Positions 1 to 43,320 of a DNA stretch of 43,672 bases are shown one piece after another. The translations under genes and the position numbers were made by a program. Below the pieces are notes generated by a model. The model had not been told where the DNA came from. It worked only from the letters and a program-made list of their open reading frames with translations, and ran no database searches. Every line of letters begins with the position of its first letter. Position 1 is the stretch's first letter. The stretch is from a virus (taxonomy: Duplodnaviria; Caudoviricetes), in the IMG/VR virus record IMGVR_UViG_3300032327_000475, positions 1 through 43,672 of that record; one strand, given 5' to 3'.

Positions 1-2418
1 AAAATTAGTTAGTTCTACGATATATGGTTCTAATTCCTGCTGTACTTCGTTATAGCTTGGTGTGGTCTGTATAGGACTGTCTGCTGGTTCTCCGGTTGAA
101 TATAAGACTTCGTTTAAATTTTCTTTTACTGGTCTGTATCCTGAACCATATGGTATAGCAGATCCTGCTTCCGGGTTAGGTGCTTCAAAAAGGTCAGGGT
201 CATTATTGTGTCCGCATACACTACCGCCTGGTAATGTGTTATGGCAGGTATATGGATCATCTCCGCCGTCTGCTATTTTCCATGTCCATCCGCACTTATC
301 ACAAATAACTTCTGTATCTGTTACTAGTTCGTTAAGGGTATCAGGCAAAATAGCTGCTATAAAGTTTACATTTTTTTCAAATTTTACTCCCGGTATAGCT
401 TTAGAAATAAATACTCTGTACAGCTGATCTCTTTGAGTACCAAAATCTTCCTCATCTGATTTTTTAGCCGGTGAATATATGATGGCTTTAGCTTCGTAGT
501 GTTTTACGTAATGTTTAACTATATCTGCTATAGTAGACATCACTTTGTAGAGTTCTCCTTTATTAACTACTATTTTAGCAGATGAACCTTCAGCTCCTTT
601 AGGTTTAGCAGTAAATTCAATTTCTAAGGCTTTAAGATTATTAAAATCATCATCAACATACTTAGTAACTGTTAAATTTACATCGTATTGGGTTTCACTA
701 TCTGTTACAAAACGAGCAAAAACTACATAATCCTTCATATCTAATTCTTGCCATTTATATGGTGTTAAATTTGCTTCACCTACTTCGTTTAAGTTCTCAT
801 TCTTAGAATGAAAATTGATAAACCAGTTAGCCTGCTGCTTATCTAATGCAGTTGCATTTTCTCTATTTTTAAACTTCTTAGCTTTTTCAATAGTTACATC
901 ACCGCCGTATGCTTTTGTGATCTTTGCTTTGAAAGTTCCAGGTGCCCCGTTATTAGTTCTTTTTCCTTTATATGCTTCAGTAAGGTCTTCTTTTTTTCCT
1001 TTAGAAAGAGCCTGAATATATTCTTTAGCTGTTACTCCTTTGGGTAAGAAAGTCTCAATTGCTTGTAAGTCTTTATCCTTAATAGCAGTTCTTAATCCGC
1101 TGGCAGATAATCCTTTTAGGTTACCAATATTGACCGGGGTTACGTGTCCGTATTTTTCTCTGTTCTTCTCAACACTCTTCCAACGATCCTCTTCATCTTT
1201 TCCGAAAACGGCAAGGTACTTGTTTTCCGGATGTGCTTCCATTTCTTGATATGCATCTAAAACCGGAGTTGCATTTTGTGCTAATTTAATTTCAACGTTG
1301 TCTGGGACAAGGCCTTTTTGCTTATAGAGCTCCCAAACTGCCATTGCCTGACTTGCATCAACGGGTATTTGACCTTCTTTTACTCTTGGCTGTTTTGAAA
1401 CATAGACATAAACCTTATCAACCTTCGGTGCAATTACCTGAATTGCTTTTAGGTGACTGGCATGAGGCGGTTTGAATGCTCCAGGAAATACTGCAATGGT
1501 TTGTTTCCCTATTTCAGCTTCTAAGATTGGTCTTATAAGATCTACAATAAATGAACCGTATTTTTCTTCTAAGGTTGCAACCGTATCTAAAGCCATTTGT
1601 TTATTATCACCTTTAGGAGTATTAACCTCCCCGGATTTAATTGATACCATCGATTTAAAAATGCCTTTAATTCTATTTTTAGATCTAGGATTTTTTAGTT
1701 TTTTAAGATCAGAAACTAAATCCTTGAATGATTGGTCAATATTATAATCAGAAAGTAGTTTCTTTACATCCGTCCAGTTGCTTGATTTCCAAACTTCTGT
1801 TCTATCAAGTTGTTTATAGTCTTCGTCTAAGGTTACAATTCTGAGAGTTAAACCTGCTGATGATAAATTAAATTCATATTCCTGATTCGGTTCTAATGTA
1901 GGGATATTCTTGATACCCATCTTAGCGAGTACTTTATTAGGATCTTCCTCTAAAGTAACTACCTTAACTAAACCTAAAATTAAACCTTGAATCTCTGCCG
2001 GATAATCTAAGAAAGTCTTTTTAAAGTCACCTTCTTCTTCCGATAAAGCAATTATGTTATCGACTTGAACGAATTCACCAGGCATTCCTGCAATCGGATA
2101 TAAGATTGTTACAATCTCTCCAGTATTCATGGTTTTTTTGCCTTTATACTTTTCACTCTTAAAAGGAACGATTATGTCATCCGGAAGTGATTCTAAGTAC
2201 TTAGCAAGCTGCTTTTTAAATTCTTTCTTGTCTTCTCCTTCAAAAGAAGTAATTAAATCAATATCACCAAAGTCTTCCTTAGCAGAAGTATTATATGAGC
2301 CAGAAACCTTAGCAGATTTAAAGCCAGGTACTTTACTTAATACCTTATCAATATATTCTTGAACCGTCTTCTCGACAGCTGATCTTGGTATGCGATTACC
2401 TCCTGCTGAACCTGACAT
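1..2418 (-). CDS. Multidomain protein (>=806 aa, runs off the left edge): Pol-beta-like nucleotidyltransferase + HxxH cytidylyltransferase-like domain + further domains including a Cys-rich Zn-ribbon; absent from the ORF track
   Basis: ATG at 2418-2416 overlaps the upstream TAA, and I found no in-frame stop down to base 1. Motifs: MSGSAGGNRI, SGSYNTSAKEDFGDIDL...QVD (GS/DxD/D), FPGAFKPPHASH...LSASGLR, CDKCGW...TCH...CGH. Confidence 0.85.
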   Translation of the reverse strand, partial: MSGSAGGNRIPRSAVEKTVQEYIDKVLSKVPGFKSAKVSGSYNTSAKEDFGDIDLITSFEGEDKKEFKKQLAKYLESLPDDIIVPFKSEKYKGKKTMNTGEIVTILYPIAGMPGEFVQVDNIIALSEEEGDFKKTFLDYPAEIQGLILGLVKVVTLEEDPNKVLAKMGIKNIPTLEPNQEYEFNLSSAGLTLRIVTLDEDYKQLDRTEVWKSSNWTDVKKLLSDYNIDQSFKDLVSDLKKLKNPRSKNRIKGIFKSMVSIKSGEVNTPKGDNKQMALDTVATLEEKYGSFIVDLIRPILEAEIGKQTIAVFPGAFKPPHASHLKAIQVIAPKVDKVYVYVSKQPRVKEGQIPVDASQAMAVWELYKQKGLVPDNVEIKLAQNATPVLDAYQEMEAHPENKYLAVFGKDEEDRWKSVEKNREKYGHVTPVNIGNLKGLSASGLRTAIKDKDLQAIETFLPKGVTAKEYIQALSKGKKEDLTEAYKGKRTNNGAPGTFKAKITKAYGGDVTIEKAKKFKNRENATALDKQQANWFINFHSKNENLNEVGEANLTPYKWQELDMKDYVVFARFVTDSETQYDVNLTVTKYVDDDFNNLKALEIEFTAKPKGAEGSSAKIVVNKGELYKVMSTIADIVKHYVKHYEAKAIIYSPAKKSDEEDFGTQRDQLYRVFISKAIPGVKFEKNVNFIAAILPDTLNELVTDTEVICDKCGWTWKIADGGDDPYTCHNTLPGGSVCGHNNDPDLFEAPNPEAGSAIPYGSGYRPVKENLNEVLYSTGEPADSPIQTTPSYNEVQQELEPYIVELTNF

Positions 2419-3383
2419 TATGCTGTTTTATATTTTGTTAAATTAGAATCTTCTGGTAAGAATTTACCTTTTAAACCTAACCGGTTCTGGTTTTTAATCC
2501 AGTAATCTTGTAAGTCTTCAGGAATATCTGCTCTAGTTGAGTCTAGTATTTTTAAGTATGTATCGTAGATGTTATTTAAATCTTCCTTAGATAAATTAGA
2601 TTTTAAATAATCTATTAATTCAAAATAATCATTAAGAATGTCTTGAGTGATATTAGTTCCGTAGAGCTTGTTCATTAACTCTAAAGTTTGTTTAGGGGTT
2701 TCTGCTTCTACTTCTCTAGTTTCTTTATCTAAGATTCCTTGTCCATGTTTGAATACTTTACCTTTGTTTGTAAATAAAGCTACAAGTAATTGTGTTCTAT
2801 GTAAACCCTTAACATTTCCTTTATATAGATTTGAATAGTAACTGAATCTTAGCCACTCTGGATTTCCTACATTAATATCGATTTGAACGCTTTCTGGTAG
2901 TTCTTGTCCTGTTTCATTATACTGCGGAAAGGCAAAGAATAGAGAACCGTTAGCTGCAGATTTAGGATCTGATTCAATTGTTGCGGTTGCTTCGTTAACT
3001 TTATTTGATATAAGTTCCAGCATTGCTCTTAATGCAACCTGAGCTGGAGTAGCTGTTCTTGCTCTCTTAGCAATCTTCTCAGATAATGCGTTAAATTCCG
3101 TTGGATCAATACCCCAACCTTCAAAGTCTGGTTTATCATTATTTATGAAGTTTTTTACATCATAAGATAAATCAATGTCTCCAGAGATATCTTTTTTTCC
3201 TGCTGAACCTAATTTTTCAAAGGATTTAAATGTAGAGGCTTTCTTAGGAAAAATATTCCCAAGCACCTCCACAAATTTCTCCATTGTAGGTTCTATGTTT
3301 TCTTTTTTAATTGATGCGGTTGTTCCAAAAACATTACCGCCCTCGTTTAAGATTTGTTTTAAAAGAGAGGTAAGCTTGATCAT
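2418..3383 (-). CDS. Pol-beta/PolX-like nucleotidyltransferase, probably head-packaged
   Basis: LGSAGKKDISGDIDL...QIDI motif; N-terminus MIKLTSLLKQILNE/GGN. Confidence 0.7.
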   Translation of the reverse strand: MIKLTSLLKQILNEGGNVFGTTASIKKENIEPTMEKFVEVLGNIFPKKASTFKSFEKLGSAGKKDISGDIDLSYDVKNFINNDKPDFEGWGIDPTEFNALSEKIAKRARTATPAQVALRAMLELISNKVNEATATIESDPKSAANGSLFFAFPQYNETGQELPESVQIDINVGNPEWLRFSYYSNLYKGNVKGLHRTQLLVALFTNKGKVFKHGQGILDKETREVEAETPKQTLELMNKLYGTNITQDILNDYFELIDYLKSNLSKEDLNNIYDTYLKILDSTRADIPEDLQDYWIKNQNRLGLKGKFLPEDSNLTKYKTA

Positions 3384-3387
3384 ATGT

Positions 3388-3395
3388 TATAAATA
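3388..3395 (-). promoter_or_regulatory. Putative phage late promoter TATTTATA
   Basis: 4 nt upstream of ATG 3383; recurs before other late genes. Confidence 0.55.
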
Positions 3396-4187
3396 TCACC
3401 CTTTCAGTTTGATGCTGGTAGGTAATACTTCTGTGTGTGGCTTAAGCTCTGGATGCTTTATTTTAAAGATTTCATATAAATGTTTGAAGATTCTTTTGTT
3501 TTCTTCTAGAGGTTCTGTTGTTTCTCTAACTTCCCATCCTTTACCTTGCATCTTATCTGCTTTCTTGCTTTCACCTCTAGTCATTGCTTTCAGCCATAAA
3601 ATGCCCATACGGTCAATTGGTCTATCAAAGCATTCATTCCAGCCGCTTGCATAACAGGCAAGTTGTAAGTCAAAAGTATCATGAATAGCATTTGAAGTTT
3701 TAATATCAAGTAACCAAAGTTCACCTTCAATCTCAACAATTAAATCGGCAGTACCTGCAATCATTAATTCGTCAGAGAAAATATGAACCTCAGATTCTAC
3801 TAAAGTTGGTTTGTAAGTTTCCCAGAATTCAACAAATTTTAAAATCATCTGCCAAACTTTAAGACTGTATTTAGTAGTTCCCCATTCATTTAACCAATGA
3901 ACTTCCTCACCTTTTAAATAAGATTCGATAGCAGTATGAACCTGTGTACCTTCTTCTCCGGCACGTCTCATAATGATATCAGCGTTTGTTCCTACTTCTT
4001 TTAACCAAGTTTCAAAGAATTTATCTTTAGGAAAATAAGATAATACAGTAGTTACAGAGGGATAAAAAATTCCTTCTTTTCTCTGATAGTATCTAGAGTC
4101 CTGTAGAGTGATTTGGCGAGCGGTTGAATCTGGATGGATTAACCTTTGAACTCTTTTGTCTTTTACGTTTTCGTTTTTTTCAATCAT
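3396..4187 (-). CDS. PD-(D/E)XK exonuclease (lambda-exo/Cas4-like, T4-like phage exonuclease A type)
   Basis: YPSVTTVL, GTQVH, E, AGTADL...LLDIKTS, QLACY. Confidence 0.85.
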   Translation of the reverse strand: MIEKNENVKDKRVQRLIHPDSTARQITLQDSRYYQRKEGIFYPSVTTVLSYFPKDKFFETWLKEVGTNADIIMRRAGEEGTQVHTAIESYLKGEEVHWLNEWGTTKYSLKVWQMILKFVEFWETYKPTLVESEVHIFSDELMIAGTADLIVEIEGELWLLDIKTSNAIHDTFDLQLACYASGWNECFDRPIDRMGILWLKAMTRGESKKADKMQGKGWEVRETTEPLEENKRIFKHLYEIFKIKHPELKPHTEVLPTSIKLKG

Positions 4188-25591: not shown

Positions 25592-25595
25592 AAAT

Positions 25596-25697
25596 AAAGT
25601 AAGATGGTGAGGTGTTAGGGGCTTTGACCCACTCGGCTTTCCTCTCCACCCATAACCTTAACTAGTATTGGATGACGGCTACATACCACCTTACTTT
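25596..25697 (-). ncRNA. Putative structured RNA between tRNA-Gln and tRNA-Glu
   Basis: 13-bp terminal stem AAAGTAAGGTGGT/ACCATCTTACTTT with one G-U pair. Confidence 0.5.
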
Positions 25698-25995: not shown

Positions 25996-26110
25996 TAGTC
26001 AGGACAGGATTTGAACCTGTAGGTGTTTTACATTTCTTCCCAACACTAATCGTGTTAAGTAATAGCGTCTACCACGTCAGGGGACACCCCTAACCTTCCG
26101 CCACCTGACT
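25996..26110 (-). ncRNA. tRNA-like RNA copy 1
   Basis: AGTCAGG/CCTGACT-A acceptor; ACAGG TTCAAAT CCTGT; hairpin inserted in the D-loop; no canonical anticodon arm. Confidence 0.75.
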
Positions 26111-26119
26111 AATTTTAAA

Positions 26120-26312
26120 CCAAAGTAGAGTAGAGTTAAACTTTTGCTGAAAAGTTTTAAGTGTTGAGTTTTTCTGTTTTTGAATCTTGAATTTTGAATC
26201 TTAAGGCATTCATCAATATCAATATCAAAGCATCACGTTATCGTTAGATAGTAATCTCTATCAGAGACGTCCGAGGACGGTGCTACTCATTCAACCCTAC
26301 TCTTTAAATTGG
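26120..26312 (-). ncRNA. Putative structured RNA downstream of the DIP1984-like gene, with 6- and 7-nt repeats
   Basis: 14-bp closing stem AGAGTAGGGTTGAA/TTTAACTCTACTCT (2 G-U); internal hairpins; ATTCAA(A/G) repeats. Confidence 0.6.
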
Positions 26313-26738
26313 TTATATCATTGTGAGAGCATTATATGCCTCAATTTCTTCTTGAAGAGTTTCAATCTGCTCTTCTATTTCTTTTATTTTAGAATCCTTA
26401 GTGAATAAGTTCATATGAACTACATATTCATTTGTATTGTCACTGTAACGATCCTTAATGCTCCCTTCCTGGGTTGATACATTACGAAGCTTTGTAGCCA
26501 TGTTTTTTAATTCTCCTAATTTAAAAATTTTATTAGCAATACCTACATTAGCAATATGAATCTTAGTTTTTAAATTAACCAACTGGTCTGTTAAATTAAT
26601 CCAATTTTCAAATGCTTCGCCTGCATCGTACCCTACACTTCCCTTTTCTGTCGAGTTAAATTTGCTAAAACGGATGTACATTTCATCGATTTGCTTTACA
26701 AGTTTCTTTTTGTGCTTTAGTGCTTTTGTTAAGTTCAT
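26313..26738 (-). CDS. DIP1984-like (septicolysin-annotated family) helical protein
   Basis: MNLTKAL...L..QI, L..LK.KI..AN, C-terminal LQEEIEAYNALT resemble that family as I recall it. Confidence 0.6.
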   Translation of the reverse strand: MNLTKALKHKKKLVKQIDEMYIRFSKFNSTEKGSVGYDAGEAFENWINLTDQLVNLKTKIHIANVGIANKIFKLGELKNMATKLRNVSTQEGSIKDRYSDNTNEYVVHMNLFTKDSKIKEIEEQIETLQEEIEAYNALTMI

Positions 26739-26758: not shown

Positions 26759-26864
26759 TAGTCAAGGCCGGACTCGAACCGGATACCGTTCTAGACGGAG
26801 TAGACAACCTTACCTCCTAAGAGTTGGGGGCTTGGGAACCATCCCGCATTACGTCCACTTGACT
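26759..26864 (-). ncRNA. tRNA-like RNA copy 2
   Basis: AGTCAAG/CTTGACT-A (compensatory change); CCGG TTCGAGT CCGG. Confidence 0.7.
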
Positions 26865-26949: not shown

Positions 26950-27042
26950 TAGTCAGGAGAGGAATTGAACCTCTCTACAGGGAGCTACCCGACATCCATG
27001 ACCTGCCATCGGACTCGAACCGACCTTGTATCCAACCTAACT
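26950..27042 (-). ncRNA. tRNA-like RNA copy 3 (two T-arms)
   Basis: AGTTAGG/CCTGACT-A; AGAGG TTCAATT CCTCT; internal TCGG TTCGAGT CCGA. Confidence 0.7.
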
Positions 27043-32496: not shown

Positions 32497-32609
32497 TAGT
32501 CAGGACAGGATTCGAACCTGTAACTAATGAAACCATTTCATCGATTGGAGTCGAACCAATACTTCCTCTACCAATTGGGTAGGGCGTCTAACCGTTTCGC
32601 CACCTGACT
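32497..32609 (-). ncRNA. tRNA-like RNA copy 4 (two T-arms, own promoter)
   Basis: AGTCAGG/CCTGACT-A; D-arm GCG...CGC; internal ATTGG TTCGACT CCAAT; terminal ACAGG TTCGAAT CCTGT. Confidence 0.8.
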
Positions 32610-41125: not shown

Positions 41126-41201
41126 AACTTTGATTTCTTATATCTATACCTAAAGATACGAACAATCGGCCGGGGAGGCAACTGTTATTTTATTTTTTTT
41201 G

Positions 41202-41295
41202 TAGTCAGGACAGGACTCGAACCTGTAAGCTTTTTGCCTTAACAAAGGTATCGGACAGAGAATCCAAAAGCGTTTACCAATTCCGCCACCTGACT
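41202..41295 (-). ncRNA. tRNA-like RNA copy 5
   Basis: AGTCAGGTGGCGGAATTGGTAAACGC...ACAGG TTCGAGT CCTGT CCTGACT-A. Confidence 0.8.
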
Positions 41296-42402: not shown

Positions 42403-43320
42403 TTATTGTCTTAAAGTTTTTTTGTTTCTGTAATTAACGCTAGTAAACATGCCTGGTATTAAATCATGACTAGTTGCTCTAATTGGATTGATATCCAAGC
42501 CTCCTCTTCTGGTATACAAACAAGCAACCATTAGTTCTGAAGGATCGTAAGCTTCCATTAAGTGAACGTATATCATTTCACAAATTTCTTCATGAAAATG
42601 AGATACTTGTCTGTGAGATACAATGTACTTAGCGATTGATTCGAAATCCGGAGTCGTTGTACCAATCATATGAATATAAACATCACCCCAGTCTGGTTGA
42701 TTAGTTACTCTGCAATTTGATCTTAATAAGTTAGACTTGATCTTAGTTTCCGCATTAAATTCAGGCTCTAAAACACTAGCCTTTAACTGAGATGAATCTG
42801 AATGGAATGTATCAAATACAACCTCATCTAAGTTAACAAGCTGTGCAAGATCCATAAAGTCTGTTCCGAATTCAACCTCAGGAGTATTATCGTTCAAAAA
42901 GAATCTAACATTAACCTCACTACTCAAAGCTTCAGATAAATCCCTGGCAACAGTCTCTTGAACATACTTGCGGCATTCTTCTGCAGTCTGACCAGCCTTA
43001 GTCATATTAAATGAATTTAAGTAGAGCTTAATCGACTTTGACTCAACGTGTAAAGGAGAATCAGCACTATAGTAGATTTTCATCATACCAGATACCGGAA
43101 GTCCTTTCTCAGTCAGAGCTGAAACTTCATAAGCATTCCAAACATCCCCTCCTACAAAAGGAAGATCACCTTCTTTAATTCCATAAGACTCTCGATTAAA
43201 ATGACGAGGGATTGCTACTAGCAACGAAGGATCATAAAGGTCACTATAACCTTCCCCTCCTACTTTACCTAAGTGTTTTGATGCTATTCTAATAACATCG
43301 GCTTGTAAATTATTTTCCAT
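42403..43320 (-). CDS. queF: NADPH-dependent 7-cyano-7-deazaguanine (preQ0) reductase, bimodular type
   Basis: DVWNAYEVS, ESKSIKLYLNSF (QueF motif), LRSNC.VTNQPDWG, FHEE, YTRRGGLDINP. Confidence 0.93.
   Translation of the reverse strand: MENNLQADVIRIASKHLGKVGGEGYSDLYDPSLLVAIPRHFNRESYGIKEGDLPFVGGDVWNAYEVSALTEKGLPVSGMMKIYYSADSPLHVESKSIKLYLNSFNMTKAGQTAEECRKYVQETVARDLSEALSSEVNVRFFLNDNTPEVEFGTDFMDLAQLVNLDEVVFDTFHSDSSQLKASVLEPEFNAETKIKSNLLRSNCRVTNQPDWGDVYIHMIGTTTPDFESIAKYIVSHRQVSHFHEEICEMIYVHLMEAYDPSELMVACLYTRRGGLDINPIRATSHDLIPGMFTSVNYRNKKTLRQ

Follow-up and report, generated by a model that had tools for sequence, protein, structure and literature searches.

The DIP1984/DUF6847 proteins form a large family with a crystal structure (PDB code 3kdq, which we take to be that of DIP1984) but no function, and no published function was found for the family in the literature searched. 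Among the systems in which protein subunits read short, regularly spaced RNA words, TRAP is a β-sheet 11-mer ring that binds eleven (G/U)AG triplets in 5′ leaders upstream of other genes. In VIPR, subunits of the Vipr protein are laid along short fixed words of the vrRNA, which is composed of 9–16 GGY/NN units at 5-nt spacing. The type III toxin-antitoxin systems (ToxIN, CptIN, TenpIN) are two-part units of a protein and a repeat-bearing RNA carried by mobile elements; as they are defined in the available part of PMC5086642, the antitoxin repeats lie upstream of the toxin gene, with a terminator between the two. Ro60 (Rsr/TROVE) is encoded next to its ncRNA, a Y RNA or YrlA of 80–130 nt, in which a long terminal stem encloses a large loop. 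Such systems occur in phages and near RNA repair genes, as far as the available text of PMC4201824 goes.

The locus described here consists of a gene followed at its stop codon by a closed-stem RNA (Table 1). It was found in a window of 43,672 bases that represents a whole virus record with a completeness estimate of 27% and that contains baseplate-like, primase and QueF genes according to HMM matches. The pair sits within a tRNA cluster on the minus strand, at 25.4–27.1 kb, and the record holds a single copy of the RNA. Seven of the ten genome-collection matches to the protein are titled Bacteroidota, which suggests that the record derives from a Bacteroidota phage. The QueF-like gene (42403–43320; 254 bits, under the cut-off) points to 7-deazaguanine chemistry in the phage.

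Table 1. Position of the gene, the RNA and its elements, and the adjacent tRNA-like RNAs in the window
Feature	Positions	Strand	Evidence
tRNA-like RNA immediately 5′ of the start codon (context), with acceptor stem AGUCAAG/CUUGACU and a T-arm-like end	26759..26864	-	
Gene; helical product of 141 aa, DIP1984/DUF6847 fold, in a divergent and mostly viral subfamily; antiparallel homodimer predicted	26313..26738	-	ORF, HMM, model
Closed-stem non-coding RNA, ~195 nt	26118..26314	-	Fold, covariation, motif model; RNA-library contigs
5′ arm: closing stem P1 (26303–26289) and outer 6-bp helix (26314–26309)	26289..26314	-	
AGUA and GC, opposite GC-AAA at 26147–26143; bulged-G/loop-E-like internal loop, subclade only	26282..26287	-	
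Two variable hairpins; insert region, not conserved among relatives	26247..26279	-	
GAU tract: 26234, 26226, 26220; fourth GAU at 26214 in subclade	26212..26234	-	
First UCAA tract: 26197, 26190, 26183; 7-nt period	26180..26197	-	
Second tract: UCAA 26167, UUAA 26160, then AACUUUU (consensus AACUCUU)	26150..26167	-	
3′ arm: P1 (26141–26127) and outer helix (26123–26118)	26118..26141	-	
tRNA-like RNA immediately 3′ of the closed-stem RNA, with acceptor stem and T arm; D loop and anticodon region enlarged; context, not constant	25996..26110	-	Rfam tRNA, 32 bits

By the features that define them, the locus is not a type III toxin-antitoxin, VIPR or Ro60–Y RNA system, and its repeats are not those of TRAP. 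With Ro60 it shares the adjacent gene and ncRNA and the long terminal stem around a large loop. By contrast, the RNA of the record is longer, at ~195 nt, carries periodic words and contains no internal tRNA-like domain. No TROVE domain was matched in the protein or in 91 scanned clusters of neighbouring genes, and YrlA gave no match over the RNA in Rfam at E ≤ 10. The T-loop word UUCGA never occurs among the 510 repeat units, 365 of which are not UUC, and the idea that the repeats are T-loop mimics was rejected. Like VIPR the locus is phage-encoded, but its protein is helical rather than of the RAMP type and its single closed-stem RNA bears 3+3+2 words at 6–8 nt, with letters between the words that are not hypervariable. 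It resembles the type III systems as a two-part protein and repeat-bearing RNA on mobile elements; however, its RNA lies downstream, its repeats are 3–4-nt words inside one stem rather than tandem pseudoknot units, and no terminator-like site is found between gene and RNA in the record. The type III-like module entertained in the original prediction is not supported in its layout. As in TRAP, an oligomer would read short, regularly spaced words, but here a predicted helical dimer faces 3–4 GAU and 5 UYAA words in a closed RNA behind its own gene.

The closing stem pairs positions 26303–26290 with 26127–26140 through 14 base pairs, including two G-U pairs (26296:26134 and 26292:26138), and an additional U-G pair extends it to 15. 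The outer 6-bp helix (26314–26309 with 26118–26123) starts within the stop codon. The segment has a folding energy of −46.9 kcal/mol (z = −3.56), and none of 200 shuffled sequences was as stable. The elements that the original prediction had read from the letters, namely the segment closed after the stop by a 14-bp stem with two G-U pairs, the hairpins CGTC-CTCG-GACG (26279–26268) and GATAG-AGATTA-CTATC (26262–26247), and the runs TTGATA TTGATA TTGATG and ATTCAAA ATTCAAG ATTCAAA ... ACTCAAC ACTTAAA, are all present as described. Rfam returned nothing over the RNA of the record at E ≤ 10 and nothing over the element in 15 related loci at the gathering score. A search for a promoter of its own between 25000 and 27900 yielded eight sigma-70-like sites versus 8.4 expected, which is the chance level.

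The stem is supported by covariation on the strand of the gene. The 18 named pairs make up the closing stem and two pairs inside it. In 18 close relatives, 14 of these have two-sided changes, a count that no shuffle among 500 reached, and the named pairs are 90% paired versus 40–52% in slid controls. RNAalifold recovers the same stem unaided and leaves the repeats and the interior open. In the cells of P1, G-U combinations far exceed A-C combinations (43 versus 6), indicating selection on RNA of the gene's strand; a DNA-level repeat or inverted repeat was rejected on this count. The AGUA just inside the stem is present in all 18 close relatives, opposite GAA in 14 of them and AAA in the other four, the record included. 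This internal loop resembles a motif of the bulged-G type.

Related loci were obtained from five collection scans and two family searches. These provided 262 records, 250 of them with a profile match, of which 13 were dropped for having less than 230 nt of downstream sequence. The 168 distinct downstream sequences comprise the record, four canonical loci and 163 others, and 104 representatives were retained under 85% identity. A duplex closing the 5′ end onto the 3′ end with z < −2 was found in 74 of the 104 representatives versus 8 of 100 upstream controls. In the same set, GAT recurs at 6 nt 78 times versus 2.4 in shuffled sequence, and TCAA at 7 nt 75 times versus 1.8. A conserved closing stem and a 7-nt period were the two features that the original prediction had named for testing in homologs.

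Because the alignment of 101 RNAs made globally with MAFFT proved too noisy to analyse stems, a motif-anchored model was used instead. The order of elements in this model is fixed: closing stem, variable hairpins, three GAU, three UCAA, two UYAA and closing stem again. The first two GAU words are separated by 7–8 nt and the last two by 6; a linker leads to the UCAA words, which follow each other at 7 and 7–8 nt, and 14–18 nt later come the two UYAA words, 7 nt apart, the last continuing into AACUCUU. The model fits the first 235–320 nt in 102 of the 104 representatives and in none of the 100 upstream controls, and, when 600 nt are allowed, all 163 distinct loci with enough downstream DNA. Since it was trained on the same loci, it was cross-checked by split training. 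Trained on 82 distant loci, it scores 9–34 in all 20 close loci and 33.5 on the RNA of the record, while none of the other 369 tiles of the record exceeds 0.7. With the 20 close loci as training set, 71 of the 82 distant ones score above zero. The gene–RNA pair, proposed in the original prediction as a protein–ncRNA pair, is real and strongly conserved.

Fourteen loci of canonical family members (one genome and thirteen plasmids) were examined by folding and by eye. Here, too, a closed-stem RNA follows the stop codon. Most of these RNAs have a GGCG/GA internal loop and several have a T-loop hairpin, neither of which is present in the phage RNA. All canonical RNAs are negative on the GAU/UYAA model. 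In 11 non-duplicate canonical loci, words of the type CA[C/A] are enriched at 7 nt (19 versus 2.4) and 14 nt (14 versus 2.1), and also at 2 and 5 nt. Because the canonical RNAs carry this periodicity yet fail the GAU/UYAA model, a periodic 3′ tract seems to be family-wide, with a word that differs by protein subfamily. On an Acinetobacter plasmid (NZ_CP098797.1, 81449–84871), a canonical gene and its RNA lie between rtcB and rtcA.

The DIP1984 profile NF038048 matches residues 3–137 of the protein (E = 1.3e-5; 25.4 bits, below the cut-off of 70). PF20935 (DUF6847) is absent from its Pfam matches at E ≤ 0.1, and no convincing Pfam family was found. Relatives tie the protein to the family, as 34 of 107 aligned sequences match PF20935 at E ≤ 0.001, and atlas clusters carry DUF6847 with scores of 0.92–0.96. 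In the nearest atlas clusters, 86–98% of the few members that have a record are viral. In a sample of 301 genomes from one phylum, PF20935 was found in just one. The AlphaFold model (mean pLDDT 94) consists of three long helices and one short β-hairpin. Its top Foldseek match is 3kdq (TM 0.77, E = 4.5e-3), which is also the top VIA match over the full length (Z 12.8, rmsd 3.3, 139 residues aligned); the runner-up VIA match reaches Z 9.4 over 64 residues only. Helical models can attain such VIA Z values by chance, and the HMM result agrees with 3kdq. A sequence search of solved structures with the protein gave nothing below E = 0.05, and the listed Foldseek and VIA matches contain no nuclease or TROVE fold and no full-length nuclease match.

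A profile search with a threshold of E ≤ 1e-10 collected 1,266 clusters defined at 50% identity. In a tree of 56 proteins, the 12 canonical sequences are split from the 44 of the phage-record type by a long branch with support of 100/100, a gap that may be overstated, as the two sets were gathered by different queries. Because of the NF038048 score under the cut-off, the fold of 3kdq and the separate branch, the protein is classified as a divergent subfamily with the DIP1984 fold and not as a family member by score. The DIP1984-like assignment of the original prediction holds in this form, and the likeness to the canonical proteins comprises the full-length fold, the weak HMM match and the downstream closed-stem RNA with periodic words.

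The label 'septicolysin' is often attached to the family. The maximum 19-residue hydropathy of the protein is 0.58 and a transmembrane segment is absent; a pore-forming function was rejected for want of a hydrophobic segment. Papers that use the label merely repeat it or speak of a hypothetical protein in the parts available (PMC10889530, PMC13141974, 10.1101/2023.09.04.556232). A known defence protein was likewise set aside, the matches to PADLOC defence models being weak and scattered, with no model matching more than 2 of the 21 members.

A prediction with four copies of the chain supports self-association, with a score of 0.78 versus 0.00 for the best control, a pLDDT of at least 89 and agreement between runs in at least 97% of contacts. 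Of 30 solved pairs, 20 pass the mark applied for self-association, as does 1 of 23 single chains; the likeness to 3kdq may account for the pass of the phage protein. The sole interface reported in the four-copy model is a two-chain, antiparallel one along helix 2. The oligomeric helical protein envisaged originally is therefore represented by a predicted homodimer, and the TRAP-like ring that had been proposed for it is not supported by the four-copy model. The residues K8, K10, K57 and K78 are lysine or arginine in 96–100% of 107 sequences, K12 in 88%, and the N-terminal part of the protein has a pI of 9.8. K57 and E76, two of the three invariant residues, fall within the predicted dimer interface, and their conservation may be structural. 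The conserved K8, K10, K12, K78, Q129 and N136 are not named in the predicted interface.

The words themselves are kept with little sign of pairing. Each GAU keeps its GA in 97–101 of 102 RNAs, and the second letter is preferentially a pyrimidine in all five UYAA words. No covariation was detected between the GAU and UCAA tracts in 12 registers across 102 RNAs, nor in the 18 close relatives, and the positions flanking the words pair between the tracts at chance level. These patterns look like those of sequence-specific protein sites, in keeping with the original proposal that the repeats are bound by the protein. As invariant columns cannot covary, the words may still form a short, protein-stabilised 2-bp pairing.

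It could be argued that the words are structural, with GAU and UCAA forming a beads-on-a-string hairpin of 2–4-bp helices, so that the RNA would act by its shape, for example as a decoy, and the protein would be a mere stabiliser. The minimum-energy fold of the record does make this hairpin, pairing UUGA with UCAA at −44.8 kcal/mol versus −34.6 kcal/mol with the repeats forced open; the GA/UY cores are complementary in 85–96% of loci, with a C-to-U variant that keeps a G-U pair, and arrays of this type with period 7 or 8 and no protein partner are described in the available part of 10.64898/2026.10.21.760802. However, two-sided changes are zero, the flanks pair at chance, nested G:Y pairs exceed a probability of 0.5 in just 5–9 of 101 RNAs, and five UYAA words stand against what are in most RNAs only three GAU. 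We consider a purely structural role improbable. Judging from the folding of the record, weak pairing of the words may occur in the protein-free RNA.

The spacing of fixed words also brings to mind a programmable guide, in which the words would anchor the subunits and the letters between them would specify a target. Phage encoding, alternating fixed and looser positions and an oligomeric protein are shared with VIPR as presented in the accessible portion of 10.64898/2026.04.26.720920. By contrast, between-word identity declines with that of the protein, from 0.91 at 90–100% protein identity through 79% at 80–90% to 0.37 at 40–50%; the letters thus track protein divergence and do not behave as a programmable guide. 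In addition, each locus has one RNA copy, the period is 6–8 rather than 5, and the protein lacks a RAMP/RRM fold. Such a guide is very unlikely indeed. Binding of predicted dimers to the repeated GAU/UYAA words in a protein–ncRNA complex, as suggested by the word pattern and the structural model, is the probable arrangement.

In 10 of the 163 loci the RNA remains intact although displaced 170–270 nt downstream. In two of these (L174 and L224, both at 1940–2128), a 62-aa cysteine-containing ORF with two CxxC motifs lies between gene and RNA; the other eight are further loci with displaced RNA. A stop-codon readthrough or recoding element is unlikely, as the RNA survives behind the inserted ORF. 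The same loci bear on a cis-acting 3′ element, whereby the protein would bind the 3′ end of its own transcript and set its stability or processing in an autoregulatory loop, the RNA being idle elsewhere. The start of the RNA at or just past the stop codon in nearly all loci, with the stop included in the outer helix here, and two RNA contigs that span the coding region into the RNA, are what such an element would look like. Yet it stays intact behind the 62-aa ORF, its eight conserved words and 195-nt frame exceed the needs of a stabilising hairpin, and a pure feedback loop would give the protein no other job. For these reasons, autoregulation in cis appears unlikely.

The expression of the RNA was examined in public sequence runs. 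Thirteen runs with a small share of the region were chosen by shared words, and eight RNA runs from eight studies were compared. Contigs cover the RNA in all eight RNA libraries; they are contigs of relatives and carry neither strand, level nor DNA control. In four studies a contig stops at 26291–26307, within the 5′ arm of the stem, with no loose end; two contigs run on into coding sequence and several reach the tRNA-like element downstream of the RNA. The coding region was not covered in any of four runs at 85% likeness and was partially covered in three of the four at 80%. A higher abundance of the RNA than of the mRNA was not counted from this cover, as conservation can be higher in the RNA than in the gene (96% versus 78% in one locus, L003). 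The contigs fit co-transcription followed by a stable RNA, which we take as a weak hint.

The original prediction had the pair flanked by tRNA-like RNAs that could excise it. Two such RNAs were found, of which the one at 26759–26864 flanks the gene rather than the RNA. Excision by flanking tRNAs does not extend to the family as a general feature, with a tRNA within 200 nt downstream of the RNA in only 14 of 103 representative loci, anywhere in the flanks in 32, and none in flanks of 1.5–2.5 kb in 71; a terminator-like hairpin follows the RNA directly in 41. Processing of the tRNA may make the 3′ end in the subclade of the record, but it is not required, because a downstream tRNA is present in so few loci.

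Several further RNAs were noted in the window. ARAGORN missed the tRNA-like RNAs at 25996–26110, 26759–26864 and 26950–27042 on the minus strand, as well as those at many related loci. They combine an acceptor stem of the AGUYAGG/CCUGACU type and a T arm with very variable interiors of 70–161 nt, and may represent mimics of tRNA or tRNA shells that carry a payload. Long tRNA matches, possibly with inserts, occur on the minus strand at 32497–32609 (113 nt, Rfam 37.6 bits) and 41201–41295 (a 95-nt tRNA-Glu call). A second closed-stem RNA, at 25592–25697 on the minus strand between tRNA-Gln and tRNA-Glu, has a 13-bp closing stem (z = −2.88; 0 of 200 shuffles) and no Rfam match.

The neighbouring genes of the pair are diverse and fall into 217 clusters, of which 91 were scanned. 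RNA-repair types among the scanned clusters are RtcB at one locus, Rnl1-type ligase at two and HAD_SAK_2 at three; a metallophosphoesterase (six loci) and an AAA_33 kinase (three loci) may belong with this set. The RtcB gene directly follows the RNA in a genome titled Akkermansiaceae (L104), where a tRNA array, the gene, the RNA and RtcB lie in series at 796–4117. In another locus (L041), the pair sits in a tRNA cluster with a freshwater-1 RNA (870–932) and a GOLLD RNA (2641–3075). According to the available part of PMC7824862, tRNAs and RNA-repair genes are common in large phages anyway. The link to RNA repair is suggestive, not strong.

This variety of neighbourhoods, and the many units that stand alone with a terminator-like hairpin, would suit an RNA-held effector akin to a toxin-antitoxin pair, in which the protein would be damaging or inhibitory in its free state, and the stable RNA downstream would keep it titrated on the repeated words as long as that RNA is neither cleaved nor diluted. 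The unit is compact and two-part, its RNA is never missing in the 163 loci, and canonical relatives are found on 368 plasmid records. However, the layout is the reverse of that of type III systems as outlined in the consulted portion of PMC5086642, no full-length nuclease structure was matched, the PADLOC matches are weak, and the protein has no transmembrane segment. An effector of this kind is therefore a doubtful explanation.

A protein–ncRNA complex assembled on the words would arise as follows. Gene and RNA would be transcribed together, in the record as part of a tRNA operon; in many relatives the pair would be transcribed on its own, up to a terminator-like hairpin. Shielded by its closed stem, the RNA would remain as a stable species, and several dimers would load onto the spaced words via K8, K10, K12 and K78, outside the predicted interface. 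We regard these three steps as probable on the strength of the sequence patterns and the model. In a fourth step, the complex would contribute in trans to RNA maintenance, whether as a scaffold, a store or a decoy, like Ro60–Y RNA in RNA repair operons. The statement as a whole, a ribonucleoprotein formed on the words and serving tRNA or RNA maintenance in the phage when its tRNAs and other RNAs are damaged, is put forward as a tentative proposal.

No description of the pair in print was found for either the phage or the canonical form, in a search that was light on subscription papers. The candidate list of 20,149 RNA–protein clusters in 10.64898/2026.10.21.760802, a preprint on intergenic mapping, may include it. 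We also suggest, with some reserve, that the pair represents an undescribed and widespread class of ribonucleoprotein, whose DIP1984-fold dimers would read periodic words, UYAA and GAU in phages and Bacteroidota and CA[C/A] in canonical bacteria. The class might serve large lytic phages as a counter to RNA-cleaving host defences and bacteria as a response to RNA damage.

The constant RNA partner and its word grammar make this family directly testable, with a protein of 141 residues, an RNA of 195 nt, eight words and two subfamilies that differ in their words. If the binding is true, the family would contribute a novel RNA-binding fold, together with a novel mode of particle assembly on periodic RNA words. 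The tRNA and ncRNA islands of large freshwater phages would likewise gain a new component.
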